DNA from: an uncultured Piscirickettsiaceae bacterium | Lineage (GTDB): Bacteria > Pseudomonadota > Gammaproteobacteria > GCF-002020875 | Reading direction: 5' to 3' | DNA: 48,847 nt | Assembly: GCA_964344805.1 (NCBI GenBank) | Contig: CAYFOU010000002.1 | Location: forward strand, 1-48,847 | Shown here: piece by piece, positions 26,711 through 48,523 of the stretch | Numbering within the stretch: position 1 is the stretch's first letter | Layout: each line of letters begins with the position of its first letter | Made by a program: the position numbers and the translations under genes | The notes under the pieces: model-generated | The model's input: the letters and a program-made list of their open reading frames with translations, nothing else | Told to the model about the DNA's origin: nothing | The model's database searches: none

Positions 26711-26923
26711 ATGTCATGGTTAATGATTTTGCAGGTGCTGATCGGTGACCTGCTGAACTTTTTGGCAATCGCGTTTCCCAAGAGAACGCGATATGAGGTC
26801 TTGCTGAGGCTTGCCGAGAGGGCGGCAGATGAGAGTGAGAACAAGCTCGATGATGATGCCGTTGCAGCGCTTCGGAAGAACTTCGATGAGTACATGGGCG
26901 AGAGCCAGTCAGAGTCCAAGTAA
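26711..26923 (+). CDS. small membrane protein (70 aa), holin-like topology
   Basis: Strong AAGGAG RBS. It has an N-terminal hydrophobic helix (WLMILQVLIGDLLNFLAIAF) followed by a highly charged tail. Confidence 0.55.
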   Translation: MSWLMILQVLIGDLLNFLAIAFPKRTRYEVLLRLAERAADESENKLDDDAVAALRKNFDEYMGESQSESK

Positions 26924-26927
26924 CGTA

Positions 26928-28697
26928 ATGATTGACGTAAAGTCATTTGGTGGAGAGAGTCCGCTGCATGCAGCTGACAAGCTGGAGGCGTGGCAGGCTC
27001 AGCAGGCTACTGACTGTGTATTCCTGAATGGGAACCTGCGGCCAGCCAGAACCAATGCTGTGACCTCATTGAATGTGCAGTCCGATGTGAAAACGCTGGC
27101 CCTGTTGACTACGTTGAAGGATTCAGCGGGGAATACCCAATCGGCAGTTGATGGAGGTGTCTGGTTGCGATGGACCAAGGATGTTGATACAGCCAAGGCC
27201 CCTATACAGAACGACAACCTCCACTATATGTTCTACACCGGTGATGGGTACCCGAAAATGACGTGGTACGGGAAATCTCATACTGGTTCGCCTGCATATC
27301 CGCCAGGGGATAACCATGAGCGTATTGGGGTGCCCCCGCCAGAGAGTGCGATGACGGTTACGGTGTCTGGTGAGAGTTCAGTGCCTGCTGCTGTTCCAAC
27401 CAATCGCCCCTACGTGTTCACTTATGTGAATAAGGGGGGGATGAGTGCTTATCAGCAAGAGGGCGTTCAGTCTCCTGCTGCCGTTGTCGATTGGCTCCCT
27501 GGGCAGGCGGTAACGCTGTCAGATATTGCTGTTCCAACCGGTGAGTCCGGTGTGACCCACAAGAGGATCTACCGGTATCGGCAGGGCAGCGGCGGTGGAG
27601 CCTTCTATCTGGTTGCAGAGATTGATGTAAGCGAAACCACGTTTGTTGACAGCCTGGACGACAGTGATCTGCCCGGAGGTGTTCTGGAAACATCGACTTT
27701 TATGCCTCCCCCCGATGACCTGCAGGGCATTGTGACGCTCGCCGGCGGCGTGATGGCGGGATTCTCTGGGCGGGACATCTGGTTTTCTGACCCCAACCAC
27801 CCATTCGCATGGCCGCTGGAGTACCGCATGACGGTTGACTTTGACCCTGTGACGCTCTCTCCGCTTGGAAATGGTGTGGTGGTGTTGACCACGGGGTACC
27901 CCTATATTATCGCTGGATCTACTCCTGCGAGCTTTGGCAGGCAGCGCCTCGGCATTGATCAGGCGTGTGTCTCGAAGCGATCAGTGGTCTCTGATGGGAA
28001 CTTTGTTATTTATGCCGCACCTGACGGCCTTGTGGGGGTTTCATTGGGCAAAGCGGATCTTTTGACAGTAAACGTCATGACTCCCACACAGTGGAGATCC
28101 CTGAAGCCAGAAACCATGCGCTGCGAGGTTCATGAGTCTCAGGTTGTTGTGTTTTACGATGATGGCGCAACGAAAGGCTCGTTTGTTCTTGATCCAAAGA
28201 ACCCGCGCAATGGACTGTCATTTTCTGACTTCCATACTGATATTTCGTACCGGGATCTGGTCGATGACACCTTGTATGTAAGAGGTTCGGCGGGGCTTGA
28301 GACGTGGAGATCGGGTGGTGATCTGAAGAAATACCAATGGCGGTCGAAGAAGTTCACTTTCGGTATGCCGGTATCGATGTCATCCCTGAAAATCGAGACA
28401 GTGCAGAGCGCGACCGATTCTGTTGTTGCCCGGACGGGGAACAGCCCCGTCGCCTCGGCTGCCAGATCAGTTGCAATCAAGGTCTATGCAGACGGGGTAG
28501 TGCTGAAGAATGCTGATGGTTCGGACTTCACGCTTACCTATAAAGGTGCCGATGATGCCGATGCTGCTCATTTTGACAGTGGTTTTGTACATCGCCTCCC
28601 TGCATGCGGGGCTGCCCATGTCTGGGAGTTTGAGCTTGCTGGAGACGCTGAGGTCCGGTCAGTGAAGATTGCCCCATCAGTTTCAGGATTGCATTGA
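26928..28697 (+). CDS. large tail structural protein (589 aa), nozzle/tubular-type suspected
   Basis: ATG 26928 follows the previous stop by 4 nt. The ORF-track start 26811 overlaps the 70-aa gene. The sequence is beta-rich and sits in the tail block; the specific role is inferred only. Confidence 0.5.
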   Translation: MIDVKSFGGESPLHAADKLEAWQAQQATDCVFLNGNLRPARTNAVTSLNVQSDVKTLALLTTLKDSAGNTQSAVDGGVWLRWTKDVDTAKAPIQNDNLHYMFYTGDGYPKMTWYGKSHTGSPAYPPGDNHERIGVPPPESAMTVTVSGESSVPAAVPTNRPYVFTYVNKGGMSAYQQEGVQSPAAVVDWLPGQAVTLSDIAVPTGESGVTHKRIYRYRQGSGGGAFYLVAEIDVSETTFVDSLDDSDLPGGVLETSTFMPPPDDLQGIVTLAGGVMAGFSGRDIWFSDPNHPFAWPLEYRMTVDFDPVTLSPLGNGVVVLTTGYPYIIAGSTPASFGRQRLGIDQACVSKRSVVSDGNFVIYAAPDGLVGVSLGKADLLTVNVMTPTQWRSLKPETMRCEVHESQVVVFYDDGATKGSFVLDPKNPRNGLSFSDFHTDISYRDLVDDTLYVRGSAGLETWRSGGDLKKYQWRSKKFTFGMPVSMSSLKIETVQSATDSVVARTGNSPVASAARSVAIKVYADGVVLKNADGSDFTLTYKGADDADAAHFDSGFVHRLPACGAAHVWEFELAGDAEVRSVKIAPSVSGLH

Positions 28698-30257: not shown

Positions 30258-32252
30258 ATGGGTATTCGACTGGAGGCTGAGCCTATCGCCGGTGAGGTTG
30301 CCTGCCCTTTGGGATCAAGCCCGGTTTCTTCATCAAGCAATCATTGCTTCAGGGTGTCGGCAGATGCAGCAGGTATTGGTGAGAATAATGAGTGTGCCGG
30401 CACGCTATTGGAGTTGGGAGGAGAATACTATTCTGTAGCTTCTCCTGACTACGACGAGAGCTTGCTGCAGACTTCTGGAGCAGAATTTCAGGTGGCTGCT
30501 CCTGATGGAAAACAGTGTAGTGCGGGTCTGCTGACTGTCAAAATGCTTGGCAAAGTGCCTGACGCAGGATATACCTCGTTGAGTGGTTTTGGTGACATGA
30601 TCAATCCTCAGTTGCCGGTTTTCAACGATGATTGGAGCTGGTTTGAGTATAGGATCAGCGATCCATCTACTGATACGGGGGAGTTTTCAGGAATTGAGCT
30701 TGTCCTTGGTGGTGTGACCTATCTGGTGGACAGTGCATTCGACCCAAACACAGTGATTCCTGGAACGTTCAATGTCTATTTGAATGACCCGCTGCCTGAG
30801 CCAGAGCCTCCACCGGACCCGCTTCCAATAGACTGGGTTGCTCCGCCTGATCCTGAGCCTACCCACTCCATATTTGTTGTAGAGGTGAAGGAGATTCAGG
30901 CGGCTGCACCTGATGCTGGATTTGTTCAGTCAGAAACGCTGGTTTTCCCCGGGGGGGAGAGAGGGGCTGGCAGGTGGAGTATCACAGATTTCGCCACGTT
31001 TGCCTCTGTAGAGGCGAGAACAGACCTGGCTGGTGCAGCCTGCTCTTCGAGAACAGAAAAGCTTGCGCTGCATCAAAATGTCCCTGGATTCGGTACCGAG
31101 ATCAGCGTTGAGGCTAATTTTGATGAGTCAATGCTGAAGACAGATGGTGCCTCATTCTATTTCTTTGCCACTTTCTTCTGCAGCCTCTACACAGTTGCCA
31201 TTTCAGAAAAGGTGAAAGCGTGCCCTGAAGGGTATTTCTATAACGCTGAGCTCGATATATGCCAGTCAATTGTTGAATATGAGGTTGAGCTGGATGCTGA
31301 CCGTGAGAGCCAGAAGAGTGGTGATCACTTTGTCTATACAGACACTGTACATGGCCTCAAGGTGTTCAATGACAGTAATAAGGTGATGCTGAATTCTGAT
31401 ATGAAGCAGTTTCACTATTACGGTAAAGCAGCGTATCACTCGCTAATTAACAGTCACAGCGAGTATGGCGGGATGGGTTTTCATACCTACGACATCTATT
31501 TGTCCAAGGACATTTTTCCGCTGGTGTTTATCCGGCCTGCTGATTATTTAAAATTGCACGCGCTGCTCTCGGTTAGAACGGTTGGTGAAGGACGCTGGAT
31601 TTGTGATGTGGCTGTTGGTGGAATAGGCACTGAGCCCCCTGAGATCCATGTGTTTGTCACGCCTGATTCTGTTGAGGAGCCTGATGATAGGTATGGCATG
31701 CAGACCTTTACTGGAGAGGGCGAACTGTCATTTGATAGCCGAAGAAAACCATTGGTCATATTTGATGGTGGAGGAACTCATGTTGATGCCATCCCATCAT
31801 TGGGGGGCAAGAACCTCAATCCTGCTGTTCCATATGAAATTGATTTGTCTGATGATTTGGGTACGAGTAATGATGATTTGATGTTCAGCGCCCCCAGTCT
31901 TGCACATGCGGAGCGTGAATATACGGAGTCTGCTGGCGATACCTGGTGTTTCCCATGTTGCTCTTGTGAGATCTACAAGAAATGGTGGAAATCCATTGAT
32001 GTGAATTGGGCTTTTTACCGAAACGGCTTCACCATTGAGGGTGGCAAGTTCAAATCTGGGTGGATTACCTTTTTGTCTGGAAACATTCATCGTCATCAGA
32101 GTGGTTCTGGGTTAAGCCTGTTTGGCATGATCGACTTGTTCTCTTGGGGGGAGCGTGACACGGCAAGTGGCTCCCCTCCGCTCAGAAATGACTCATGTAA
32201 TGTGACTATCCCAAATACCTACTTGATCACCAAAGTATCGAGGTATGTATGA
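30258..32252 (+). CDS. large hypothetical virion/tail protein (664 aa) with Pro/Glu/Asp linker (PLPEPEPPPDPLPIDWVAPPDPEP)
   Basis: Long ORF with a GGGGAGA RBS and an internal duplicated segment (DYDESLLQTSGAEFQV vs NFDESMLKTDGASFYF). No enzymatic motif was recognised. Confidence 0.55.
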   Translation: MGIRLEAEPIAGEVACPLGSSPVSSSSNHCFRVSADAAGIGENNECAGTLLELGGEYYSVASPDYDESLLQTSGAEFQVAAPDGKQCSAGLLTVKMLGKVPDAGYTSLSGFGDMINPQLPVFNDDWSWFEYRISDPSTDTGEFSGIELVLGGVTYLVDSAFDPNTVIPGTFNVYLNDPLPEPEPPPDPLPIDWVAPPDPEPTHSIFVVEVKEIQAAAPDAGFVQSETLVFPGGERGAGRWSITDFATFASVEARTDLAGAACSSRTEKLALHQNVPGFGTEISVEANFDESMLKTDGASFYFFATFFCSLYTVAISEKVKACPEGYFYNAELDICQSIVEYEVELDADRESQKSGDHFVYTDTVHGLKVFNDSNKVMLNSDMKQFHYYGKAAYHSLINSHSEYGGMGFHTYDIYLSKDIFPLVFIRPADYLKLHALLSVRTVGEGRWICDVAVGGIGTEPPEIHVFVTPDSVEEPDDRYGMQTFTGEGELSFDSRRKPLVIFDGGGTHVDAIPSLGGKNLNPAVPYEIDLSDDLGTSNDDLMFSAPSLAHAEREYTESAGDTWCFPCCSCEIYKKWWKSIDVNWAFYRNGFTIEGGKFKSGWITFLSGNIHRHQSGSGLSLFGMIDLFSWGERDTASGSPPLRNDSCNVTIPNTYLITKVSRYV

Positions 32253-32458
32253 GCACGCAGTTGACCAAAGTTGAATTCCAGGTGCGTGAGCTGGAATCTG
32301 GCGTAGGCATTCTGGTGATGGTCGAGCGATTAAAGGTATCGCCTACAGGTGAGCAAAAAGAGTCGTCTGATACAGTTTTTCTTGATGCAGATATTCCAGC
32401 TGATGAGGTGACCGAGAGCTGGGTAAGAGCAGAGCTGAAGAAAGAGGGGATGCTATGA
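32249..32458 (+). CDS. hypothetical acidic protein (69 aa)
   Basis: ATGA overlaps at both ends suggest translational coupling. Confidence 0.5.
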   Translation: MSTQLTKVEFQVRELESGVGILVMVERLKVSPTGEQKESSDTVFLDADIPADEVTESWVRAELKKEGML

Positions 32459-33063
32459 CTTCAGTAAGGGAGGAAATCAACACCTATGCAGCAGCAGTGG
32501 CATCAGCTGTTTCGAGTGTTGATGCATTCAAATTTAAGCACATGAGGGGGGCCATGGGCGGATACCTCTCAGCGATATCGGTTGCATTGTGTTTTGCTGA
32601 TTACTCAAAGATCCCAGGTGCGACCCAGGAGAAGGTGATTAACACTATCCTGTCCAACTCAGTCAGATCAGCATTTTCGGCGCAGAAGCGACTGCTCCTC
32701 GATATGCAGAAACGGAAGTCGAATGCTACAGCAGGCGATGCTCGCTTAAAGGGTGTGGTGTATACGGACAATCCGCATGAAATCACTGATTTTTTTGCAG
32801 GCAGATACTGCTCACTGGCTCCATATTCAAGCGGGGCTCCGTGCTTCGCAAAGCTTGTGCTGACCGGTGATACACCGCTATACAAGCAGGCAGGGTATGA
32901 GGTGATGCCTGATAATCTGGTCTTGTTTGGGGTCTACAACCCTGAAGAAGAGGTTGTCCACGTATTTGGGAACCCCATCTCTTTCACAGTAGATCTGAAT
33001 TCAGCGGTGCTCGCGTCGGTTGAGCTATTTGATGTCGTAGTCAGGCAGGATGAGGATCAGTAG
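32455..33063 (+). CDS. hypothetical protein (202 aa)
   Basis: ATGA overlap upstream. No motif recognised. Confidence 0.5.
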   Translation: MTSVREEINTYAAAVASAVSSVDAFKFKHMRGAMGGYLSAISVALCFADYSKIPGATQEKVINTILSNSVRSAFSAQKRLLLDMQKRKSNATAGDARLKGVVYTDNPHEITDFFAGRYCSLAPYSSGAPCFAKLVLTGDTPLYKQAGYEVMPDNLVLFGVYNPEEEVVHVFGNPISFTVDLNSAVLASVELFDVVVRQDEDQ

Positions 33064-33078
33064 GAAGGAGGGTTCGCA

Positions 33079-33345
33079 TTGTTCGGGATTTTCTCTGAAT
33101 ATAGGAACTTCATGATTGATGGCCGTCCTGTTGAGGTCGGCATGACGGAAGTGCGAGACTTCTATGTTCATCTTGGTTCGGGCGGCTATAGGTTACAGCC
33201 TGCTGATGAAGAGGATGGCTGGCTGGTGTTCAACGGGTCTCTCTATGAGCTTCAGGAGATGGTCTTGATTGATGGTCAATTGGAAGTTGCTGCTGATACT
33301 GATCTTGATGGCAAGCTGGTAACAGTCTTGTCTCGCATGGGGTAG
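33079..33345 (+). CDS. hypothetical protein (88 aa, TTG start)
   Basis: Strong AAGGAGG lies 7 nt upstream of TTG 33079. Confidence 0.5.
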   Translation: MFGIFSEYRNFMIDGRPVEVGMTEVRDFYVHLGSGGYRLQPADEEDGWLVFNGSLYELQEMVLIDGQLEVAADTDLDGKLVTVLSRMG

Positions 33346-33351
33346 AGCAAT

Positions 33352-33678
33352 ATGACATTCGAACATTTTCTTGAGCTGTTCAATTTGGCGGCTTATGAAG
33401 CGGCAGTTGATAAAGCCTCTGTCGTTACGGCCACAAGCAAAGAGGATGAGATCCGATCCTCTGGCCTGGACAGCTTGGACTGGAGCGTCGCCATGATGTA
33501 CATGGGTGACATGTTCGGTATTTCAGATGAGCAGATGGGCGATGTTCAGGATCTAATTGTTGAGGGGCGCACGCTTTCTGACCTGTATGGATTTGTGCTT
33601 GAGCACAAAACAAAAGACATGGAGCTTGAAGAAGCTGAGGCGATGATCAAAGCCGATTCTGCTGAGGATATTGCATGA
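33352..33678 (+). CDS. acyl carrier protein-like (108 aa)
   Basis: Carrier-protein signature SGLDSLDWSVAMMYMGDMFGISDEQM, with Ser41 (33472-33474) at the phosphopantetheine position. It is a small acidic helical protein. Confidence 0.8.
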   Translation: MTFEHFLELFNLAAYEAAVDKASVVTATSKEDEIRSSGLDSLDWSVAMMYMGDMFGISDEQMGDVQDLIVEGRTLSDLYGFVLEHKTKDMELEEAEAMIKADSAEDIA

Positions 33679-34742
33679 ATCTGCGGCATATCAGCTCTGT
33701 CTATTCGACCTCTGTCACCGCGATTCATGACTGCAGTTACCCGTCAAACGTCCATGCGGTGATCACAAAACAGAACCGAAAAGTAGCAGCGGGCTACACT
33801 ATCATTCCGCATGCCTTAATTGAAAAATGTCTTCGGCCTTATGCCGAACAGCTGAAGGCGGCTGCCAGTAAGGGGCGCTCTGGATTTATCTTGGCAACAG
33901 GAAATACTCACTGGGACGGGTATCAGGTCAAGCGAAAAAGAGAGCCGTCAAATGTACCCACATTCAGGACTGTCGCTCTATCAACCACCAATATCTATGC
34001 AGGAAGAATCGCTAATTCTCTGGGCTATAACGACTATATCTCAACTGATGCAACTGCCTGTTTGTCAGCATACAGCGCAATGTTCGTGGCGCAGATGCTG
34101 ATTGAGAGTCAGCGTCTGGAACGTGTTCTTGTTGTTGCCGCTGAAGACGCAACCGCACACGACAGTATAGAGTTCTTTGGTGAATACCATGCAGCAGTAA
34201 CGCTAGAAGATGAGCAGAATGGCAAATTGCCAAGCGCCTTTGATGATCGGCACGGGGGGTTCCGTATCGGGCATGGTGCAGGATTTGTGCTGCTGGAGCG
34301 CAGCGGACCAGGCCCGGAAATTGATGTCGCGGTAAATGCTGAGCCATTTGGCAATGCTCTCGGTCAGAGCGAGTCAGGAGACGGGTATGTCACAGCAATG
34401 AGAAGCGTGGAGCTTGATGGCGTGGACCTGATCAAGACCCACGGCACCGGGACTCCAACGAACAATCAGGCTGAGCGATCGGCCATTGAGAGTGTGTTTG
34501 GCGATGATTTTGTAGCAACCAGTTACAAGCCGATGATCGGTCACACAATGGCCCCGAACGGGATCATTGAGCTGGACATCCTCCTGCAGGACATGTCCAG
34601 AGGGGTGGTGTCAGGGATAAAAAATCGCACAGTCGATGATGATCAATTTTTATCTGCAGACAGAGAGATGTCTGTCAGAAAGGCGCTGTGCCTGGGGAGT
34701 GGGATGGGGAACGGATTCGCGGCAATGACTGTAACCGTGTGA
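33675..34742 (+). CDS. beta-ketoacyl-ACP synthase, KAS I/II (FabB/FabF/NodE)-like (355 aa)
   Basis: It carries DATAC(129)LSAYSAM, FDDRHGGFRIGHGAGFVLLE, KTH(256)GTGTPTNNQAE, KPMIGH(290)TMAPNG and C-terminal LGSGMGNGFAAM, in the order and spacing expected for a Cys-His-His condensing enzyme. Its ATG overlaps the ACP TGA. Confidence 0.82.
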   Translation: MNLRHISSVYSTSVTAIHDCSYPSNVHAVITKQNRKVAAGYTIIPHALIEKCLRPYAEQLKAAASKGRSGFILATGNTHWDGYQVKRKREPSNVPTFRTVALSTTNIYAGRIANSLGYNDYISTDATACLSAYSAMFVAQMLIESQRLERVLVVAAEDATAHDSIEFFGEYHAAVTLEDEQNGKLPSAFDDRHGGFRIGHGAGFVLLERSGPGPEIDVAVNAEPFGNALGQSESGDGYVTAMRSVELDGVDLIKTHGTGTPTNNQAERSAIESVFGDDFVATSYKPMIGHTMAPNGIIELDILLQDMSRGVVSGIKNRTVDDDQFLSADREMSVRKALCLGSGMGNGFAAMTVTV

Positions 34743-34799
34743 CAGTTGGCATGCTGCTTGCTCAGGATAGTCGAATCTTTCAAGCAAGTGGAGGGAGTG

Positions 34800-35306
34800 A
34801 TGGAAAAAGTCGTGTTATTGGCGTTTTTTGCTGTGGGGGCAGCACAGGCCAACGAAAATTCGGCGTTCATGTCGATCAATGGGTTTGCAGGGGATTCCGG
34901 CACCAAAGGCAGTTATGATGGATATTCTGTGGGGGCCGGGTATTCATTCAATGAGCACTTCTCTCTGGATGGTTCATACTATGTGGAAAATGGTGAGACC
35001 TATCAGGTGAATGGAGCCGATGTCACTGATAAAGGGGATGGTTGGACGCTTGGTGGCGCGATTTCATCCCCTGTTCTTGACAGCCTTACACTTGGTGTCA
35101 GGGCTGGAGCCATACACTGGCGGAATGAGACCGAGCCTGCTGGTGCTGCGACAGTGCATACTGATGGTACCGAGCCTTATTATGGACTTGAGGCTGAGGT
35201 CTCTTTGACAGAGGCTCTTTCGTTCACCGCTGAATACACCCACTATGAGGTGGACAGTATCAATGAGGTTGATGTTCTGAGTGGTGGGCTCCAAGTCCGT
35301 TTCTGA
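34800..35306 (+). CDS. small outer-membrane beta-barrel protein (168 aa), OmpX/Ail/Lom-like
   Basis: GGAGGGA RBS. It has a signal peptide MEKVVLLAFFAVGAAQA/NE, amphipathic strands (GYSVGAGYSFNEHFSLDGSYY.., YYGLEAEVSLTEALSFTAEY) and a terminal ..GGLQVRF. Confidence 0.7.
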   Translation: MEKVVLLAFFAVGAAQANENSAFMSINGFAGDSGTKGSYDGYSVGAGYSFNEHFSLDGSYYVENGETYQVNGADVTDKGDGWTLGGAISSPVLDSLTLGVRAGAIHWRNETEPAGAATVHTDGTEPYYGLEAEVSLTEALSFTAEYTHYEVDSINEVDVLSGGLQVRF

Positions 35307-35371: not shown

Positions 35372-35407
35372 TGGTGTGGACTTTCCGGTTTTCAGGAGAC
35401 CACACCA
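35372..35407 (+). promoter_or_regulatory. hairpin pairing TGGTGTGG with CCACACCA, enclosing the AGGAGA RBS and touching the start codon
   Basis: 8-bp stem (35372-35379 with 35400-35407). The SD at 35394-35399 abuts the 3' arm. Confidence 0.4.
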
Positions 35408-35862
35408 TGTCAAACCAAAACGAAGAGGCTTTTCTATTCAAGGTTATACGTGACCCCGATGCTGTTCGTTTTGCGCAACTGATTTTTCGTGCGAGTCAGG
35501 TGCTTGATGATCTCTATGATCAGGACCGAGAGGTCAGTAAAGATCTTGTTGTAAGGACGTTCTGGGAGCTTTTGGTAGAGCTGCCAAACAACCCGTTCTA
35601 TTTGCGAAATATCTCAACTTTAACGCCGCTGATCCAGTCGATGATGGTCGATTGGATGGATTCGTGTGTTCTGGAAAAAAGTGGTGATGAGGAAGAGCTG
35701 AGGATTGCGTATGTACTCAGAGACAGTATCAGCGCTCTGACGATCCACTGCGCATATCTGGTTAATGGATATGAGTGGATGCTGAAAGTATCGCCAGAGG
35801 TGCGGCGACTTGTGTTTGATGAGCCGATTGAAGAGTACCAGGAGAGTTTGGGCAATGGGTAG
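35407..35862 (+). CDS. hypothetical helical protein (151 aa) with DDLYD (DDxxD-type) motif
   Basis: AGGAGA lies 8 nt upstream. The segment ..LIFRASQVLDDLYDQD.. plus ..AYVLRDS.. is reminiscent of isoprenoid-synthase acidic motifs, but the protein is about half the size of such enzymes. Confidence 0.45.
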   Translation: MSNQNEEAFLFKVIRDPDAVRFAQLIFRASQVLDDLYDQDREVSKDLVVRTFWELLVELPNNPFYLRNISTLTPLIQSMMVDWMDSCVLEKSGDEEELRIAYVLRDSISALTIHCAYLVNGYEWMLKVSPEVRRLVFDEPIEEYQESLGNG

Positions 35863-36439
35863 CTTTAGTGGTGGAGGTGGGGGCAGCAATAAGGTTGAAG
35901 CATCACCTCTTGAAATTGAGAACGCTGAGATCAGCCGGGAGAAATGGGATCGTTACAAGGGTAGCTTCCGGGAGAAAGTGGAATCCAAGTTCCGTGAGCG
36001 TGTAAATGCAATGGGGGTTGAGGGTGCCAGCAATGCCGCTGCGAGCATGGCTGAGGTGTCTCTGTCCAATAAGTTTCGTGATCATGCAAAAAGCACTATT
36101 GCATCTGAAATGCAGAATAGTGGCGTGAGTGCCCGTAGCGGGAGAATGATCGGTCTGAGGGCCAAGACACAGCGCATGGGTGCAGGGATGAATACAGCTT
36201 CAAAAGGGCGAGCCCGATCCGGTCAAAAAGACCGCCATTACGGAGGCAAGATGAATGGTCTCAGTATTGGTCAAGGACAAGCTGTATCTGCGCAAAATTC
36301 GATGATGGGACTTGTTGATGATGCGGTCAAAGAGCAGCAGCAGAAGGCAATTGCGAAGTGGAATGACAGCAATATGTTGCAAACCACTGCAGTTCAGACT
36401 GGTACTTTGGGTGCCATGTACTTCAAGCGCAAGGGGTAG
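35855..36439 (+). CDS. internal virion/ejection-type protein, paralogue 1 (194 aa), N-terminus MGSFSGGGGGS
   Basis: Its ATG overlaps the previous stop (ATGGGTAG). It is Gly/Ser/Ala/Gln-rich and sits in the block preceding the giant protein. Confidence 0.55.
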   Translation: MGSFSGGGGGSNKVEASPLEIENAEISREKWDRYKGSFREKVESKFRERVNAMGVEGASNAAASMAEVSLSNKFRDHAKSTIASEMQNSGVSARSGRMIGLRAKTQRMGAGMNTASKGRARSGQKDRHYGGKMNGLSIGQGQAVSAQNSMMGLVDDAVKEQQQKAIAKWNDSNMLQTTAVQTGTLGAMYFKRKG

Positions 36440-36442
36440 ATT

Positions 36443-36862
36443 ATGGGCAGTATGAGTGGCGGCGGTGGTGGAGGGCAGCCTCAACAAGACTGGACAGCAG
36501 CCAATATCTCAGTAGATGTCTCAAGGGATATTTGGGAGACCTACAAGGCGGACTATACGCAGTGGGAAAACGACCTGATTGCTGCCTCGACCGATACCAG
36601 TGCTGATATGGCGGAATCGGATGCCTTTGCAATGACGGATGTGGATGAGTCTTTCCGAAAGGCTGGAAATGAGTTCTCCATGGTCAACGCCAGAATGGGG
36701 GTCCAGATTAATGGTCGAGATCAGTCGATCCTCGACCGCCAGAGCAATCTTGACGCGGCCTTGGCGAAGGCGAATGCCATCAATACAGGGCGTCATGATG
36801 TTGACGAGAGGGCGCTGCAGTTAATGACTGGCGGTGTTAAGGCAAAAAACAGCGTTGCATAG
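36443..36862 (+). CDS. internal virion/ejection-type protein, paralogue 2 (139 aa), N-terminus MGSMSGGGGGG
   Basis: AAGGGG RBS. It shares its N-terminus and the ..SR-(K/I)W-(R/T)YK.. segment with ORF 35855. Confidence 0.55.
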   Translation: MGSMSGGGGGGQPQQDWTAANISVDVSRDIWETYKADYTQWENDLIAASTDTSADMAESDAFAMTDVDESFRKAGNEFSMVNARMGVQINGRDQSILDRQSNLDAALAKANAINTGRHDVDERALQLMTGGVKAKNSVA

Positions 36863-36874
36863 AGGGGGTTCAAT

Positions 36875-37141
36875 ATGAGCGGATTAATCAATGCGGGGAT
36901 TAAAGGGTACCAAGAGCCTGCGCTAAAAGGGTTCCAGGTTGCTGCTGAAGGTGAGTTTGCAAGAAATGGCACTGCACGTGATATTGATGCACAGGATAAG
37001 GCGCTGCAGATGCAGACGGTCATGACTGGTGCAGGGATGGGAATGTATTACGGCATGAGCGAGGCTGGTGCTGCACTTGGGGGGCCGGCGGGAGCTGCTA
37101 TTGGTGCTGGGATCGGGTTGCTGATTGATGGATTGTTCTGA
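36875..37141 (+). CDS. glycine-zipper membrane protein (88 aa)
   Basis: GAGGGGG RBS. The C-terminal half, GAGMGMYYGMSEAGAALGGPAGAAIGAGIGLLIDGLF, is a GxxxG-rich hydrophobic segment. Confidence 0.6.
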   Translation: MSGLINAGIKGYQEPALKGFQVAAEGEFARNGTARDIDAQDKALQMQTVMTGAGMGMYYGMSEAGAALGGPAGAAIGAGIGLLIDGLF

Positions 37142-38994
37142 TGAAACTACATACTCCTAATTTGATGGGCGGCGTCAAGGACGCTATCGCGCTTGGACAT
37201 GCTTTGTTTGGCGACAAAGAGGGTGAGACCCCGACTTCTGCCAGCACCAACAAGAAGAATGGTGCGGCGGCTCGAAAAGAGGATGCACTTGCGGACAAGT
37301 ACAGTGCGGAAGCAGATTCGACAAGGGCAAAAATGCCTCGGGAGGTGGAGAAGCTTGGTGCCCAGGTGGGCTCTGAGCGGGCGAAAGGCAGAAAGTATGA
37401 TGCTGAGGCAGCTGATGCGGATTCTTCGACCCGGGCGAGAGATGCCAAGTTGCCGCATGAGGTGGAGAAGCTTGGTGCCGAAATAGGTGACAAGCGGGCT
37501 TCTGCCAAGAAAAAAGAGGAAGAGACAAGGAAGCTGGCAATCGAGCGCCGGAAGCAGGCCACAACAAGTGCAATTACCGGATTTTACGATGCAGCGATGT
37601 CTCTCCCGGCCGGGGCCTCCGGCGAGGAGCTGAATCGACTGGTCAGTCACTATCAGGGAGTGATCGACGATGAGGGTGAGATGTTCGATCTTGCGGCCAC
37701 GCTTTCTGGAGATGGCGGTTTCTCAGCCGCCCATCGAATGACAGAGATGATTGATGACATCCGGCGCATGCAGAATGCAGGCACCTATGAGGGAGGCAAT
37801 CGGACATGGCGTGAAGAGGACGGCATGCGAACAGAAAAGCTGCAGGGTTATAAGGATGAGGCGCTGTCCATTCTGCAGAACGACCCTCACATCCAGAGGA
37901 TGATTGATCGCGGCAATGGTGGAAGAAAGGTGCTTTCTGATATTGTCCCGGGAAGTGAGATCTCGGATTCTCTGCCTGATGATCACCTCTACGTCGAGCT
38001 GGAGGTGACCCGGCCAGATGGTTCTGTCTCTTATGAGTTGATGACGATGAATCGGGGCACCAAGGAAGAGGGTGACGACCGAGCAAAACCAGTCGCGCTG
38101 AGAGACATCCAGCAGCATTTCTATGGTCAGCAGAAGATCGCATCAGCACTGGAGCCGTTCCGAAAAGTTCTCCAGAGGAGGCAGCAGGAAGGTTATTACA
38201 GTGCAACGACTGATCCCACGACCCATCAATCTAACCTGAGATTGGGAGAGAACCTCATCACCAAGGGGATCGATACTCGAAATACGCTGGAGGGTGAGGC
38301 AACAGGGCGATATCAGCAGCAAGTCGATGCTCTGATGGAAAGTGGTCTTGGAGCCCTGCGGCAGGCACGGGCGGCAGAGCAGGCCGGCGGTGAGAAGATG
38401 GGCGATGATGACCGTGCAGCTTTGCTTGCGATGGAAAACCAGCTGGATGACCTCGAAGCAGAACATCAGCTGGGCATGTTGTCGGCTCAGAGGCGCGGAG
38501 CCACATACCTTCAGGCAGCGGATAAAGTGCGGGATGGCCAGGCCAAGCCACCAACCGCAAGTTTGGGATCAGCTGCGTTCAGCTCGACTGCTCCAGCAAC
38601 TGCTGCACCTGCTCCAGCGGTTAATACGGTGACGCCGACACAGCGTGCTACCGGTTCATTGTCGTCTATGGTTGCTCAAACCATGGCGAACCACCCAGAT
38701 CAGCCTCCAGTCAGCGAAGCTCCGACCGCTCAGGTAGCTCCAGCAGCGGATGATGAGGGCGCTGATCAGGCCCTTCATGGTCTGCAGGGTATTGTTCACT
38801 CAACTGATGCAGGGCTTAGCGAGGGTGATGCGCGTGCAAAAATCAGGGAGCTGAACCGGATCTATGAGCTGGCCAAGAGCAATCCGGCATTAATGAGCAA
38901 GCTTGTCTCCCGTACCGGGGCGAAAACAGTCGAACAATTCTTCCGTGAATTGATGGCAAGATTGATGAAGCAAGCGGGCATCAGGGGTGGTTGA
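37141..38994 (+). CDS. internal virion/ejection protein (617 aa) with a 39-aa tandem repeat
   Basis: ATGA overlap upstream. The exact 21-nt repeat GAGGTGGAGAAGCTTGGTGCC occurs at 37342 and 37459 (..P(R/H)EVEKLGA..). The protein is charged and helical with an Ala/Pro-rich C-terminal part. Confidence 0.55.
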   Translation: MKLHTPNLMGGVKDAIALGHALFGDKEGETPTSASTNKKNGAAARKEDALADKYSAEADSTRAKMPREVEKLGAQVGSERAKGRKYDAEAADADSSTRARDAKLPHEVEKLGAEIGDKRASAKKKEEETRKLAIERRKQATTSAITGFYDAAMSLPAGASGEELNRLVSHYQGVIDDEGEMFDLAATLSGDGGFSAAHRMTEMIDDIRRMQNAGTYEGGNRTWREEDGMRTEKLQGYKDEALSILQNDPHIQRMIDRGNGGRKVLSDIVPGSEISDSLPDDHLYVELEVTRPDGSVSYELMTMNRGTKEEGDDRAKPVALRDIQQHFYGQQKIASALEPFRKVLQRRQQEGYYSATTDPTTHQSNLRLGENLITKGIDTRNTLEGEATGRYQQQVDALMESGLGALRQARAAEQAGGEKMGDDDRAALLAMENQLDDLEAEHQLGMLSAQRRGATYLQAADKVRDGQAKPPTASLGSAAFSSTAPATAAPAPAVNTVTPTQRATGSLSSMVAQTMANHPDQPPVSEAPTAQVAPAADDEGADQALHGLQGIVHSTDAGLSEGDARAKIRELNRIYELAKSNPALMSKLVSRTGAKTVEQFFRELMARLMKQAGIRGG

Positions 38995-41900
38995 TGTCTG
39001 AATTCAGTCTTGCTGGTGAACTGGGGCAAACCCAGTTGAGTAAAGAAGAGCTGCAGATCATTGAGGCGAACAGACGACGCAAGGAGGAGCGGGCGAGACT
39101 GTTCGAGCAGGAGCAGCGAAATAATCAGGGGCTTCAGCCGCTGCACGCCCTTGTAAGGGGGGCGGTTAGTTCTGTTCAGTCGCTTGGCAGTGGGCTGAAG
39201 TTTGTTGGTGCAGAAGAGACCGGTCAGGCTATTGAAGGCTGGGCTGAAGAGACCAATCAGGATATCTATGATGATATGTCTGATAAGACCCGGGAGGCCA
39301 TCAGCACCCCTTTGACCGTCGAGAATGAGGATGCCCTGCTTGGTGTCTCTCTCAATCCTGATGCCGGCTGGGAAGATTTCTTTATGGGGGCAATGGAGGG
39401 CAGTGGCTCTGCTATTGCTTCGGTTGCCGCCGGTGGCCCTGCCAGTGCCGGTGTAAAAGCCGCGCTGAACAAAGGGTCTCAATGGGCTGCAAAGCGGATG
39501 AGCCGTGAAGCAAAGGCCCTGATTCAGGATGGCGCTGATCCAGGCAAGGCTGCTGAACTGGTGCTCTCCCAGTACAAGGTAGGAAAGTTCTCAGTTCCAG
39601 AGACTGTTGCCGGGGTGACCGGTGCAGCAGTTGGTTTTGGTGGTACCGGCGCCTTGATGGAGGGCGGTGGCGCAGCATCAGAAGTGGAGGATGCAGTCCT
39701 TCAGCTGCCATGGAAAGAGGCGAACCAGATCGAGCGATTTGGTGAGATTTACCACCAGCAGGTAGAGGGGGATGAAAATCTCCGTGATCTTCCGCTTGCA
39801 GAGAAGCATCGGATCGCGCTGAAGCTCTATGCCCGGGAAGAGGCGGATCGGGCATTTGATGACATGGCCGTGAAGGCCGGGATCACCTCTGTGGTCGCTG
39901 GGCCGATGTTGCAAAAAGCCATGCTCGGGAGGTCATCCTCAGTGGGGAGAGGGTTTGCATCAGGTGTTGTGGCTGAATCAGCTGAAGAGGGGTATATCGC
40001 CGGTGAGACCCAGCAGAATATCAATACTGCCACCGGCCGTCCGGAGGATGAAGGGGTCGCCCAGGCGCGTGCCGAAGGTGCAGTGCGCGGTGGTATGGCC
40101 GGTGGTGCGGTCTCGGCTCCCAATGCGCTCATGCGTGGTGCCCAGGGAACCCTGCAGAAGGCAGATATTGAGGCTGCAGATGCGGTTGCTGACGAGAAGC
40201 GCACCAAGCACCTGGATGCAATTAACCAGTCGAGAGAAGCAATGGGGCTCTCCCCGATGCAGTCTCTGGATGAATTTGAGGACCGGTACAGAGTAATCCC
40301 TGGTGCAGACGATGGTGATCCTTTCATCATATATGACACCCATGAGCGGAAGACAGTCGGCCATAAAGAGGATGAAGGGAAGGCTGCACACTTGGCTAAA
40401 TTGAAGAATCTGGAGCACAACATTGCTCGGGGGGAGCCGGTGAGTGACGCTCCCGCTGAAGCGGACCCAGAGACCCCGGCCGAGGCCCCGGTGGATGAAG
40501 AGGTTCCTGCTGAGGATGTTCCTGTCCCTGCAGAGGAGGGTGAAGCGAGCAAAAGTGCTGACAGCTCACGCGAAGCAGTCGAACGTGGAGAGGTGTATAG
40601 CGCATCTTCTCAGGGCGCGTCGCTCGAAGAAGCTCACATAAAGCTTGCCGAGAAGAAGGCCGAAGGTGCCAGGGAAGCATTGCAGCGATTGTTGATGAAA
40701 AATGACCCCGCCGCTGTATCAATCATGCTGCCCAATGGAGAGCGAGTGAGTGGTCAGCAGGCCGGGGACTTGATCGAAAAGCTGGTTCTTGCCGGCAACG
40801 ATGGCTCTGACATCCTAGGCCGTATGCCAGCCATGTTTGAGCAGTCCTCTATTGAGCCCCTGCAGGCTGAAGAGGTTGAATCACCAGCAGCAGAAGAGGT
40901 GCCGGGGCCGGAGGCTCAAGAAGTATCAATCCCAGAGGTAGCTGAGGTTCGCATGTCAGATGCCCGGGGCTGGGGGTTGCCGGAGCTGCAGGCCCAATCA
41001 GAGATGCGCGGTCTGCCAACAACAGATCTCTCTGGCAAGGGGCTGACGATCAATCAGATGCTCGATAATCTGGATGACTTCCAGCGTGGCCGCAAGGTGG
41101 AGGCCGCCGGTGAACTGAGAAACCCTGCGGATAAGATGCTGGCCCACCCGGTCCAGGCGCTGATCAAGAGGATGGGGGGCGTGAACCCGGCCTCTCCGAT
41201 CGGAAAGGAGCTGCGAGCTACCGATGCACATTCATGGATTTTCAATAATGAGGGGCTGGGATCTCTGGACGGTATTGTCCAGAGTGAGCATGAAGAATTC
41301 AGCTTGTTGCCGCCGGCAGAGGATCTGAACGGTTTTGTTGATGAGAGTGTGATTGTTGATCTTGTGCGCGAGGAGCTGTCTGGCAATCCTCTGCGAAGTA
41401 GTCGGCAACAGGAGGCGATAGACAGCTACCAGATGGACCTGTTGGCAGGCAAGCAGGCTGAGGCCGATGCTGAGATGCGGGCACTTGGTGATGGGCATGA
41501 TGAGTTGTCGAATTTTGAGCTAGACAGATTGGACTACGATCAAGACTGGGGGGATTTCCACAGCCAGACAGTTGACCTTTACCAAAGGGCCGCTCAATAT
41601 GATGAAGAGGCAGCAGATCGATTGATGGGTGACCTGGAGGTCAATCCAGTTGATTTGCAAAATCAGCTGCAGGGGATCGTTACCCTATTTGAGGAGCAAA
41701 ACAGTGAGCATGTCGCCGGAAGACCGGAAGATCAGGGAGTCCCAAGTGGCCTGGATGAAGAGGCACAAGGAGAAGAAGTTGGGGCAGTCGAGCCCGCCGC
41801 CGCAGGAGCAGAAGGACAGCAAGAAATAGAGGGGCTTGGCAGCCCGATCGATCAGGCTGCTCATGAAGCGGCCACTTCCCCGCTCAATGATCATCCTGAG

Positions 41901-44900
41901 CCAACTGATGGGCAGAAGAAGGCGGGGAACTACAAACTGGGGCCGGTGAAAGTCCATGGACTTGATATAAGTATCGAGAATCCAAAAGGTTCCGTGCGCC
42001 GTGGGGTAGGCCGTAACGACAAAGAGTGGGCGGTAAAGCTGCAGTCTCACTATGGCTATATCAAAGGGACTGTCGGCAAAGATAAGGATCATGTGGATGT
42101 GTTCCTGGGTGACAATGTAGAAAGCCCTGATCTGCCAGTATTTGTTGTGGATCAGGTTGACCCGGCCAGCAGAAAATTCGATGAGCATAAGGTCATCATG
42201 GGAGCCGCTACCCGGGAAGAGGCTGAGGCGATTTACCTCTCGAATTATGAGGCTGGATGGACCGGTCTGGACGGCATTACCGAAATGCCCCTGGATGAGT
42301 TCAAGGCATGGGTGAAAGACTCGAAGAAAACGCAAAATCGATTGAGTGATGCTGATCCTCAATTTGCGCGTCATTCAGAAGATGGTCAGGAGGGTGGCTA
42401 CAAAAAATTGCCAAGATCCAGGGTTCAGCTGTATGCTAACCAGCTCAATACGTATCTCAGCAAAGAACCAGAGATTGGAGTAAGACACGCTTATGAACAG
42501 GTTGATATGCCTGACACCTCTGTTGGATGGGTCCGGGCGTTTGAAGAAGCTCTTGGACGAAAGGTCGTCTTTATCCAGCCAAACCACCCCAGAGCCAAAG
42601 GCTTCATCAATGGAGCCTACGTCAAAGGAGATATCCTCTACATCTCAGCAGAAGCCGGAGAACCCAACTTCGTCCAAGTAGCTGGGCATGAATTCCTCCA
42701 TTCTCTGCAGAAAAACAATAGCGACCTGCATCGTTATCTAGTCGACAACCTGACAAAATATGTTACGCCTGAGAAGATGCGGGAGCATCATCTCAAGCTG
42801 CGCGAGATCACTGATTACAGTTCTGAAGTAACCAGAAACGAATTGCTTGCCGATTTCGTTGGAGATGCGTTCAACGATACCGAATTCGTGAAGCAACTGG
42901 CCGAGGACAACCCCTCCAAATTCAAATCTCTGCTCAATAGCCTGATCGATTTCTTCTCTGGACTTGCGGACAAGCTGCAGAAGCCTGATGACAGATCTTC
43001 GAAATATTTCCATGATGTGGCCGGAATGCGCGACCATCTCAGGACCGTTATGGATGCCTATGTAAATGGAAAAAGCATTGATGAGGTGACTGAGGATAAG
43101 CCCCTGTACCAAAGGCAGAGTCCCGCACCAGCTCATGGAACTGCAGAGGACCAAGCCGGTAGCAATAGAGTTCTGAGTGGCTTCGGTCAGGGTATCGCTT
43201 CCGGGTTGAAACGTAACGGCCTCACCTGGAGAACAGTCAAGGACACGATCCGCCCGGGGATGCTCTGGGGGATGACCGGTAAACAGATTCTTGAGGTTTA
43301 TGGTGGCAAACTGCGCGGCTCATTGAGGCAGTACACCCATCTTCTTGATCAGATGCGCGAAGAGAAGAGCCGCCTGATCAACCGTGCCGACAGCATCGAG
43401 AAACGGTGGAATCGCCATGTCGATGCGACGGAGATTGGCGAGATTCTGCTGGATGGCACCTTCAACCAGGTCGACCCACTGATGTCATTTGATGACCATG
43501 AGCATATCCGCAAGAAGCGCGAGAAGATCCATGGGCTGACTCGGGATCTGCGCATGATGGATGAGATGTCTCCGGATCAGGCTTATTTGGAGGACCAGCT
43601 GCTTGATCTGGAAACGGAGATGGACGGGCTGAAGGAGACGCACGCGATGCTGCAGGGGCGGTACCAGTCCCTCGACAGCAGCGGCCAGAGAATCTATCAA
43701 GAGGTCCGAGACTCCTATTCAGATGGTCTGCAGGAGTATAAGGAGGCGTTGCTGGAGCGGATTCAGCGCAGTGAAATGGGGGGTAAGGCAAAGGTCGCTG
43801 CTCGCAGCCAGGTTGAACTGATGTTTGCTGAGATGGCGCATCAGGTTGCCTACTTCCCTTTGAAGCGATTCGGCCAGAACATTGTTCTCGCTGAGATCGA
43901 TGGCGAGCGTCACGTCATGAAGTTCGACCGAGTGTCCGATGCCGAGGCAGAAAAGAACCGCATTGTTGATGAGGGCGGGATCGCTGAGCGCCACACAGAA
44001 ATGGACTACCTGAAGAGTGATAACACGGTGACTCCTCAGTTCATGACGGATGTCGAGGCCATGCTCGAAGGAAACGGCTTGATGTCTCAGGATCTTCGAG
44101 ATTCGCTGAACCAGCTTTATCTCAACTACCTGCCGGAAAGCTCTTCCAGAAAGCAGTTCATGCACCGAAATTATGTGCTGGGCTTCTCCCGCGATGCAAT
44201 CAGATCTTTCTCACACTCCATGTTCCATGGTGCTCACCACATGGCCAAGATCAAGTTTGCAGACAAGATGCAGGATGAGCTGAGCCGGATGGAGCAGATG
44301 ACGAATTGGAAAACCTACAAGATATTTGCCTCGGAGCAGGCAAAGCAGGTTGCCGATTACGAGGATGAAAATGCGGCTCTGCGTGCGGCAGCAGAGGCGA
44401 GAAAAACGCATCCTGATTGGGATGTAAGTGTCGATCCAGATGATGCCGGCAACTGGGTGGTGACCATCAAACCGGTCAACAACCGGGAGGAGGTTGGCAG
44501 CTTCAGCACCGAGATTGAGGCCCGGGAAGCGCGGGTCACAATGATGGAGAAAATGCCAGAGTCCGAGTTCACCATTGTGCCCGAGACCAATCCTGATCTG
44601 GCTTCTGACCTCAAGGACTCAGAGTCTCTTGCTCATGTCGTCAATCACATGAAGAAGCGTCATGAGGTGCTGATGAACCCCGCCGGCTCCAGATTGGCGA
44701 ACGCACTGAGTGGATATGGCTTTCTGATGTATCTCGGCTTTACGCCGGCTGCCGCCATGGTGAATATGTCCCAGACTGGTTTGGTGGCCCTGCCGCAGTT
44801 GGCAGCTCGGCATGGCTGGAACAGGGCTCAAAAGGCGCTGCATGGTTATGTGAAGGATATCGCGGTCGGTGGGCATATCGACGGGGTGGATGATATTGAA

Positions 44901-47832: not shown

Positions 47833-47962
47833 ATTGCTTTCCTCGCGTAGAAAACATCGCGGTTTTAACAGTAACGCATGACGGCCCACCGCGAAACGGG
47901 GATTCGGCCGCTAAACCTAGTCATGCGCAAATCGATTATATGGTGAAGAAGGAGTGTGTGCC

Positions 47963-48523
47963 ATGGGGAGTTTTGATGGAAATAGCAAGAAATTGGCCGA
48001 GAAGAGGGACGATGTAGCGAGAGTCGATCCTGGCCGGTTTGATCGTGCGCTCGATTTCTATTTGGAGAATGAAGGCGGCGATGTCGATCATGAGAGTGAT
48101 CCCGGGGGCGTAACGAGCCGAGGGATCTCAGCTGAATACAATCCGGAGCTGGAAGATGTGACCCGACTGTCTGATGCAGAGGTGAGAGAGCACTACCGGA
48201 AGAAATACTGGAGGCGAGTTTTCGGGCGCCTCAAGAGCGACGATGTTGCGATCAAGATCTTCGATATATCGACCAATGCTGGCTTCGATGATGCGAGCAT
48301 GGTGCTGCAGCGGGCCATCAACGACTGCGGTGGAGAGGTCATGGTTGACGGGGTGATGGGTAGCAGAACGGTGGCAGGGGCCAACTCTGTGGACCAGCTG
48401 CGGCTGCTCCGAGCGGTATGCCAGCGGCAGTGGCTCATGTACCAGGAGAAAATGGAGCAGGCACCGGAGAAGATTGCTTTTTACAATGGCTGGATGAGGC
48501 GAGCGAAGAGGGTGCCAGCATGA
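47963..48523 (+). CDS. endolysin, GH108-type muramidase with C-terminal peptidoglycan-binding-like region (186 aa)
   Basis: ..LENEGGDVDHESDPGGVTSRGIS.. matches the GH108 EGG...DPGG-T--GI signature. The C-terminal ..FYNGWMRRAKR resembles PG_binding_3. AAGGAG lies upstream. Confidence 0.8.
   Translation: MGSFDGNSKKLAEKRDDVARVDPGRFDRALDFYLENEGGDVDHESDPGGVTSRGISAEYNPELEDVTRLSDAEVREHYRKKYWRRVFGRLKSDDVAIKIFDISTNAGFDDASMVLQRAINDCGGEVMVDGVMGSRTVAGANSVDQLRLLRAVCQRQWLMYQEKMEQAPEKIAFYNGWMRRAKRVPA

Follow-up and report, generated by a model that had tools for sequence, protein, structure and literature searches.

A gene pair encoding an acyl carrier protein (ACP) together with a β-ketoacyl synthase (KS) was analysed in a contig deposited under an uncultured Piscirickettsiaceae bacterium (CAYFOU010000002.1, assembly GCA_964344805.1, positions 1 to 48,847). 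The whole stretch of 48,847 nucleotides, referred to below as the window, is the genome of a temperate podovirus-type phage, with almost every gene on the + strand. The pair is followed by a gene for a small outer-membrane protein (OMP), and the initial annotation of this DNA had described the three together as one cassette inside the virion-gene operon. The three open reading frames (ORFs) were found where that annotation had placed them, with the following features.

33352-33678, + strand: predicted acyl carrier protein, divergent and dedicated, 108 aa (family profile, AlphaFold2 model)
33472-33474, + strand: Ser41 codon AGC, predicted phosphopantetheine site in D40-S41-L42-D43 (invariance, model)
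33675-34742, + strand: predicted compact KAS I/II-type β-ketoacyl synthase, 355 aa (Pfam, PDB matches, AlphaFold2 model)
34059-34061, + strand: Cys129 codon, predicted active-site nucleophile (FabF alignment, invariant)
34440-34442, + strand: His256 codon, predicted first catalytic His in KTHGTGT (aligns with the His of FabF HGT, invariant)
34542-34544, + strand: His290 codon, predicted second catalytic His in K285-x3-G-H290 (His of FabF K-x4-H, invariant)
34800-35306, + strand: predicted OmpA-like eight-stranded outer-membrane β-barrel, 168 aa, with signal peptide (PF13505, PF01389)

The sequence was read directly at these positions. The ACP gene starts with ATG at 33352 and the KS gene ends with TGA at 34740-34742. 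The GLDSLD motif of the carrier is encoded by GGC CTG GAC AGC TTG GAC, and the AGC codon lies at 33472-33474, as had been claimed for Ser41. The reported overlap of the ACP stop with the KS start is an ATGA at 33675-33678, an arrangement read as translational coupling of the two genes. The OMP gene starts with ATG at 34800, with a GGAGGG Shine–Dalgarno sequence ahead of it, and is separated from the KS stop codon by 57 nt, not by the 58 nt first given.

Identical gene order was found in two further independent metagenome assemblies from the same project, and the GC content, the GC content at third codon positions (GC3) and the codon adaptation of all three genes lie within the range of the structural genes of the phage itself. 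An assembly chimera with host DNA, the objection raised in the initial annotation, and a very recent acquisition are thereby excluded. Promoter-like sites numbered 6 where 7.3 were expected, and the terminator-like sites near the OMP gene were weak; neither scan was above chance, and autonomous transcription of the cassette as a moron drew no support from them. A Pfam scan of 43 further ORFs of the window returned no phosphopantetheinyl transferase (PPTase), malonyl transferase, reductase, dehydratase or thioesterase domain, in line with the earlier description, and no acyltransferase domain either. Since the window holds no other enzyme of the fatty-acid pathway, the pair would have to rely on host enzymes. 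The ORFs at 32249-33345 and the 151-aa ORF downstream of the OMP gene had no Pfam match.

Carrier protein and ketosynthase

The 108-aa protein contains GLDSLDWSVAMMYMGDMFGI, within which Ser41 lies. As a single sequence it matched neither PF00550 nor any PDB chain, and a word-indexed single-sequence search recovered only the protein itself; a profile was required to reach relatives. These were gathered by position, as ORFs upstream of KS loci. In two independent alignments (30 and 32 proteins) the sole invariant columns were Asp40 and Ser41, and the family motif around the serine was G-[LI]-D-S-[LFM]-D. When the profile of 30 sequences was compared with the PDB, the best 60 of 110 matches were all ACPs (top E = 5.5e-5), with the Asp-Ser of the profile lined up with their DSL motif. 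PF00550 was reached individually by 14 of the 30 family members, so that the suggested check against this profile came out negative for the window protein alone and positive for its family. Alignment with Escherichia coli AcpP using hhalign gave a probability of 90% and placed Ser41 on Ser36.

The AlphaFold2 model of the carrier (pLDDT 91.1) is a helical bundle with an extra C-terminal helix, in which Ser41 opens the second long helix (helix II, residues 41-55). Its fold matches were almost all ACPs or peptidyl carrier proteins (1x3o with a probability of 0.96 and a target-normalised TM score of 0.61); the E-values were weak (≥0.18), as expected of a fold this small. On profile and model evidence, the 108-aa protein is a true, though divergent, acyl carrier protein, recognizable only at the level of the family profile and of the predicted structure. 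AcpP docks the enzymes of type II fatty acid synthesis (FAS II) through acidic residues of helix II. Helix II of the window protein, SLDWSVAMMYMGDMF, reads as far less acidic than that of AcpP, SLDTVELVMALEEEF, which suggests a carrier partly insulated from housekeeping partners.

The KS carries the motifs DATAC(129)LS, KTH(256)GTGTP and IGH(290)TMAPNG. It scored 41.8 bits against PF00109 and 46.9 bits against PF02801 (gathering cutoff 20.8 for both), and its closest PDB match was FabF (1j3n, E = 3e-15). In HMMER alignments to FabF structures C129, H256, K285 and H290 sit on the catalytic Cys, His, Lys and His, and the same four residues are invariant in family alignments of 25 and 59 members. 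An AlphaFold2 model built on the 59-sequence alignment (pLDDT 91.9, pTM 0.92, with loop 82-86 at low confidence) has a predicted five-layer thiolase fold superposable on FabF and FabB. Comparison using Foldseek with FabF, FabB and the actinorhodin KS gave query-normalised TM scores of 0.78-0.83, with E-values down to 4e-20. The original assignment to KAS I/II with a Cys-His-His triad was thus borne out by the domain scores and the aligned residues, and the proposed superposition on FabF by a query-normalised TM score of about 0.8. Judged by its conserved active-site residues, the KS appears catalytically intact. A real ACP together with an active KS is very probable.

Between the KS and FabF, structural alignment gives about 17-23% identity, and local stretches reach about 30% at most; the protein is about 55 residues shorter than FabF, its N-terminal third being compressed. 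All 18 NCBIfam models placed it under their cutoffs (TIGR03150 fabF, 90.4 against 493.75 bits; FabB NF005935, 42.9 against 630), and by these scores it is not a FabF or FabB ortholog. The motif HGTGTxSNN, in which Asn264 replaces the Asp of FabF, is invariant in the family where FabF has HGTSTPxGD. GMGN, also invariant, replaces GFGG and puts Met344 at the position of the gating Phe (the second Phe of FGFG in the alignment with 5sxo). These two invariant substitutions argue for a conserved but altered chemistry.

An exhaustive search of 1.84 billion representative proteins yielded about 43 clusters (50% identity) of the KS family at E ≤ 1e-30. They are set well apart from the polyketide synthase (PKS) megasynthases and the housekeeping synthases, which begin near 1e-22, and by this separation the family is a discrete one. 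Its traces in the databases are automatic annotations: one deposited uncultured phage, one BFVD entry named 'FabB', and phrog_35856, which the window KS matches at 2e-42 and which is listed as 'unknown function'.

Distribution of the pair among phages

Loci were fetched with the KS profile (80 viral and 18 genome loci) and by protein look-ups, with neighbourhoods of about 6 kb on either side of the pair, and the neighbouring ORFs were clustered; loci are numbered with the prefix L and protein clusters with c. A KS relative is encoded on at least 563 IMG/VR viral contigs, and the pair is no rarity. In 83 of the 84 unique loci with enough upstream sequence, the ACP gene (an ORF of about 93 aa) is found no more than 1 kb upstream of the KS gene; in 80 of those 83 its end and the KS start are at most 30 nt apart, mostly with an overlap. 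The ACP was the sole neighbour found to travel with the KS. The conserved unit is the ACP and the KS alone.

The OMP, the 69-, 202- and 88-aa ORFs and the 151-aa 'DDxxD' ORF (35407-35862) were singletons in the clustering of 89 unique loci, and the OMP and the flanking ORFs were rejected as parts of the unit. The sole homolog of the 151-aa protein in a cultured phage is in Achromobacter phage CF418P1, at the same backbone position; as CF418P1 has no KS, this ORF is a backbone gene. Neither the three-gene unit of ACP, KS and OMP nor its proposed extension to the upstream ORFs (32249-33345) and the DDxxD protein could therefore be retained, and the suggested comparison of synteny in related phages bore out the ACP-KS order and not the flanking ORFs.

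The pair is present in at least three different phage backbones. In architecture I (podovirus-type) the order is virion/tail proteins c5, c6 and c4, a small ORF, ACP, KS, c3 and two large ejection-like proteins, an order which the deposited uncultured phage MW202545 fits. In architecture II, that of a large phage lineage, the pair lies in a replication module whose order is primase, helicase, ACP, KS, small ORFs, exonuclease, Gp2.5-like single-stranded-DNA-binding protein; in two of its loci a genuine FabZ/FabA dehydratase gene lies directly 3' of the KS gene (PF07977, 5.8e-30). Architecture III contains the nearest relatives of the window KS (52-56% identity), in the order tail-fibre-like c82, c83 (common to the window), ACP, DUF2269 membrane protein, KS, portal. 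The insertion point in the window has tail-fibre-like genes on one side and the block of ejection-protein genes on the other. The additional genes of architectures II and III are located as follows.

L025, 7118-7549, and L058, 4168-4632: FabZ/FabA gene after the KS gene (PF07977)
L014, 1179-1637, and L015, 5561-6004 (also L006-L008): DUF2269 integral-membrane protein gene between the ACP and KS genes

Among 72 loci fetched independently via c3, 70 have ACP-KS immediately upstream of it. The other two, L149 and L157, have the identical backbone, with c7 followed directly by c3 and no trace of the pair. Backbones without the pair, taken with the several backbones that carry it, make ACP-KS a mobile accessory cassette, a clean and facultative insertion of two genes. 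A location in the virion operon, which the initial annotation had treated as defining, is accordingly one of several: the pair also occurs in a replication module and before the portal gene, and it is absent from two genomes of the same backbone.

The c3 protein (about 143 aa, e.g. L010:11091-11522) is encoded 3' of the KS in most podovirus-type loci. Its invariant polar residues in a 24-sequence alignment are Ser6 in an N-terminal VDSK, Gly52-Asn53, Asp74 and Asn78, and it showed no similarity to PDB chains, Pfam, HlyC or the window proteins. A role of c3 ('type A') as a cryptic acyltransferase was rejected for want of HlyC or PDB similarity and because c3 is also present without the cassette, which makes it a backbone gene. 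The first ejection-like protein after c3 in MW202545 (L001:13494-15413) has an extremely Cys-rich stretch with many CxxC-like repeats behind a Gly/Val-rich amphipathic N-terminus.

The OMP of the window scored 51.7 bits against PF13505 (cutoff 28.7, E = 1.5e-13) and matched PF01389 at 2.3e-6. Its signal peptide ends AQA|NE and its C-terminus is LQVRF, with a terminal Phe; the small barrel with a signal peptide described at the outset was therefore confirmed. PDB matches were weak and to the OmpA transmembrane domain, and no match was found among 50,697 phage records. An enzymatic barrel (PagP, PagL) was rejected, the matches being of OmpA type only. The OMP gene is best read as a separate, lineage-specific cargo gene of moron type that stands beside the pair by chance.

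PHROG and Pfam scans of the window recognized tail-fibre proteins and the following backbone genes.

4529-7297: terminase
7415-9610: SU10/P22-type portal
11137-12075: major head protein
26811-28697: internal virion protein
35810-37141: small virion proteins
38991-46376: polyvalent DarB-like protein, 2461 aa, with a lytic transglycosylase region
46816-47889, minus strand: integrase
47954-48523: GH108/PG_binding_3 endolysin

At about 30% identity, the structural proteins have distant relatives in Vibrio phage douglas 12A4, Stx-converting phages, Burkholderia phage CSP3 and Pseudomonas phage Itty13; at the DNA level the window matched no deposited phage. Scans of the contig gave no tRNA gene, Rfam match or terminal overlap. 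The terminase large subunit ORF (4529-7297) is unusually long, at 922 aa. Its residues 350-423 weakly match a ribonucleotide-reductase PHROG, and a LAGLIDADG-like domain was matched among the window ORFs without being mapped to the terminase ORF specifically; together these suggest an intein or a homing-endonuclease insertion. The 2461-aa protein has its lytic-transglycosylase-like region at residues ~950-1120 and a DarB-like C-terminal part, and the InPase and LPD39 domains found in the whole-window Pfam scan probably belong to it. In the same scan the SU10 adaptor protein was matched by three ORFs. The ORFs at 15792-16736 and 16919-18016 are tandem paralogs, both of phrog_20948.

Two consecutive small virion-type proteins (35855-36439 and 36443-36862) each begin MGS-x-SGGGGG. 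Their Met-Gly start was considered as a cassette-linked N-acylation signal and rejected: the equivalent protein of the KS-less CF418P1 begins MGC, which makes the motif a trait of the backbone, and in architecture I the Gly is not always present.

Bacterial relatives

Among 185,579 reference species genomes KS relatives were found at 18 loci, every one from metagenome-assembled genomes (MAGs). The bacterial pairs, a fourth recurrent context beside the three phage architectures, occur in two types of operon, one associated with RTX proteins, type I secretion and HlyC, the other a small lipid operon; all sampled relatives are in such specialized operons and none is in a fab cluster. The loci of the first type are the following.

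L098, 4170-6021; L113, 7891-11819; L115, 101-4793; L116, 4360-10613; L094, 5453-12331: ACP-KS operons with HlyC or RTX genes

The KSs of this group, from Burkholderiales MAGs (L094, L098) and metagenomic contigs (L113-L116), are 44-46% identical to the window KS. A HlyC-family acyltransferase gene (PF02794) directly follows the KS gene in L098 (5e-21), L113/L114, L115 and L116, and in operons of this type a HlyC-like paralog without the catalytic His is encoded ahead of the pair. The loci adjoin genes for TolC-like outer-membrane efflux proteins (OEP), LuxR-type regulators and proteins of more than 2000 aa. L116 also has a type I secretion pair of an ABC transporter and a membrane fusion protein, and L094 encodes an 807-aa RTX-repeat protein (PF00353, 2e-44). 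HlyC-type enzymes move acyl chains from acyl-ACP onto lysines of secreted pore-forming proteins. As the classical HlyC system draws on the housekeeping ACP of the cell (PMC5279801), the ACP-KS-HlyC operons look like systems for the activation of RTX-type toxins with a dedicated acyl supply of their own.

The second type occurs in Campylobacterota (Sulfurovum and relatives) and comprises genes for a TetR regulator, a 274-aa weakly ferritin-like protein, the ACP, the KS, a metallo-β-lactamase (MBL)-fold protein, a short-chain dehydrogenase/reductase (SDR)- or flavodoxin-like reductase and a 4HBT thioesterase. It looks like a small lipid-biosynthetic cluster.

L002, 5782-10969; L004, 5474-14542; L095; L097; L100: Campylobacterota-type operon

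A second, canonical KS is encoded nearby in L004.

In an unbootstrapped neighbour-joining (NJ) tree a long branch separates a canonical FabF from the whole KS family, which forms a single clade; within it the HlyC-linked clade is sister to phage architectures I and II.

Proposed function and its alternatives

As the best overall explanation we propose that a private ACP and an intact condensing enzyme form a two-gene accessory cassette supplying acyl-ACP, a proposal for which we put the chances at about even. A private acyl-donor role of the pair, with host FAS II borrowed for the remainder, is judged reasonably likely; that the acceptor is specifically a protein is a tentative suggestion, with doubt outweighing belief. 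In the proposed mechanism a host PPTase would turn the phage ACP into its holo form and host FabD would load malonate. Cys129 of the phage KS would accept a primer acyl group out of the host pool, and the KS would condense it with malonyl-ACP. The resulting (3-oxo)acyl chain, of a particular length, would sit on a carrier separate from the host AcpP pool. Reduction and dehydration, if any, would be carried out by host FabG, FabZ and FabI, and a specific acceptor at the cell envelope would then be served by the private acyl-ACP.

One of the closest parallels in logic is NodF/NodE of rhizobia, a dedicated ACP and a KAS II-like synthase that make the special acyl chain of Nod factors. As there, a KAS I/II-type KS gene comes directly after the ACP gene, with no other pathway genes, the rest coming from FAS II, and a private carrier would route the chain to one acceptor; NodF itself (1fh1) was among the PDB matches of the phage ACP profile. 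Unlike NodF/NodE, the carrier is phage-borne, no equivalent of NodA was recognized, and the KS is about 50 residues shorter, has its own long branch and carries Met for the gating Phe. The likeness drawn here is one of gene arrangement. The FabZ genes of architecture II tie the pair to ordinary FAS II-type chemistry.

The bacterial relatives, as far as sequence comparison goes, lend concrete support to the acyl-donor idea. Like HlyC/HlyA (TAAT family, PF02794), the phage pair would provide an acyl-ACP donor for protein acylation, and its bacterial counterparts are followed by HlyC in RTX/type I loci; unlike them, the window has no HlyC-like gene. A second precedent is IacP of Salmonella SPI-1, a dedicated ACP encoded in the operon of a translocation machine, which acylates the membrane-inserting, pore-forming translocator SipB with no separate acyltransferase known (PMC5279801). 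Here too ACP-KS stands directly before ejection-type proteins, in the window and in architecture I, and these proteins are expected to form the trans-envelope ejection channel. IacP differs in having no partner KS, and the phage pair is found apart from ejection genes as well; the S-acylation of SipB is on a conserved Cys. Taken with IacP-SipB, the co-occurrence with HlyC makes acylation of a membrane-active protein, of the phage or of the host, the most concrete candidate, and by analogy this would be the single most likely use, followed by remodelling of envelope lipids. Lipidation of a membrane-active phage protein in particular, for example a downstream ejection or trans-envelope channel protein, is doubtful.

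Several findings weigh against this interpretation. Neither the neighbouring ORFs nor the c3 family of the phages gave any match to a HlyC profile, and the window has no recognizable acyltransferase or acceptor; a cryptic HlyC-like protein was also sought there by Pfam and HlyC searches and none was found. The three proteins directly downstream (35855-36439, 36443-36862 and 36875-37141) lack Cys, unlike SipB. Architecture II sets the pair among replication genes, which suits a general metabolic gene equally well as a virion-linked one. As helix II lacks most of the docking acids of AcpP, the use of host FabD, FabG, FabZ and FabI is an assumption. Finally, the NJ tree places the window KS and architecture III nearer to the Campylobacterota MBL/SDR/4HBT operons than to the HlyC clade, whereas pairwise identity puts the window KS closer to the HlyC-linked group.

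The alternative that survives best, although we consider it fairly unlikely, is a general metabolic booster, a classical auxiliary metabolic gene function in which the pair would add to host FAS II elongation and sustain phospholipid supply without a special product or acceptor. The window proteins share folds and Cys-His-His residues with housekeeping FabF/FabB and AcpP, and the gene order is that of acpP-fabF. Most of the phages encode no consumer next to the pair, which is facultative and in architecture II sits in a replication or early-type module, sometimes with FabZ; moreover, predicted roseobacter prophages reportedly carry canonical fabG-acpP-fabF sets (PMC8224337). Unlike those sets, the phage pair has a divergent ACP, no fabG or fabD, and a KS below every curated NCBIfam cutoff (90 against 494 bits for fabF) that stands on a long separate branch with an invariant Met for the gating Phe. 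A highly divergent carrier of its own would be needless for a booster, host AcpP being abundant, and the specialized operons of all sampled bacterial relatives also tell against this role.

Production of a released small molecule is the next alternative and is unlikely. The KS and ACP would make a short β-keto or polyketide-like lipid (a signal, a toxin or a methyl-ketone precursor) acting on the host or its neighbours. The TetR-controlled Campylobacterota operons resemble clusters for small lipids and the window KS lies near them on the NJ tree, but that tree carries no support values. The non-acidic helix II of the ACP could exclude host reductases and leave unreduced products. Parallels with a minimal type II PKS extend to the stand-alone ACP and to the KS fold, which matches the actinorhodin and anthraquinone synthases about as well as FabF. 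They end at the gene content: the window has a single KS-family ORF with no ketoreductase and no paralogous chain-length factor, which a minimal type II PKS needs, and a thioesterase, cyclase or other release enzyme is missing from the window and from most phage loci.

It is improbable that the pair and the barrel serve together in envelope conversion, altering outer-membrane lipid or lipid A in the lysogen and blocking superinfection in the manner of AcpXL. The phage is temperate (integrase at 46816-47889), the pair comes right behind tail-fibre-like genes, where morons typically lie, and adjoins the OMP gene, and a sister phage lineage has the DUF2269 inner-membrane protein between ACP and KS. 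AcpXL with FabF1XL/FabF2XL, the donor of very-long-chain acyl groups for lipid A, likewise combines a specialized ACP with a dedicated condensing enzyme, and the AcpXL-type carrier RPA2022 (2kw2/3lmo) was among both the sequence and the fold matches of the phage ACP. The AcpXL cluster, however, has its own FabZ, dehydrogenase and LpxXL acyltransferase, none of which is in the window. The OMP is not conserved with the pair and resembles non-enzymatic OmpA, not PagP or PagL; a separate promoter or terminator was not above chance; and most carriers of the pair have no lysogeny genes in the fetched regions.

An artefact or a decayed gene, be it a phage contig with host DNA wrongly assembled into it or an inactive enzyme remnant with a structural use, might be suspected from the metagenomic origin of the contig, the shortened KS and its low-confidence loop 82-86, but it is effectively refuted by the independent assemblies, the phage-like codon usage and GC content, the hundreds of viral contigs and the invariance of the catalytic residues and of the ACP Ser.

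The enzymes belong to known superfamilies and the logic of an ACP followed by a KS is that of NodF/NodE or AcpXL. Full-text literature searches for a phage ACP-KS module and for ACP-KS-HlyC operons returned only the report on fabG-acpP-fabF prophages and the IacP paper, neither arrangement being described. Dedicated ACP and KS pairs are known from the Nod-factor and lipid A pathways; a discrete, strongly conserved and mainly phage-borne ACP-KS family was not found described in these searches. The family implies that many environmental phages would run a specific acyl-chain reaction in the infected cell, and its bacterial relatives, by tying it to HlyC-type protein lipidation, provide a concrete hypothesis for the role in phages. 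If the bacterial operons are what they appear to be, they would be the first systems for RTX-type toxin activation to have an acyl supply of their own. If a phage protein is indeed lipidated, it would be the first lipid-modified genome-delivery protein of a tailed phage and a counterpart of IacP-SipB and HlyC-HlyA.

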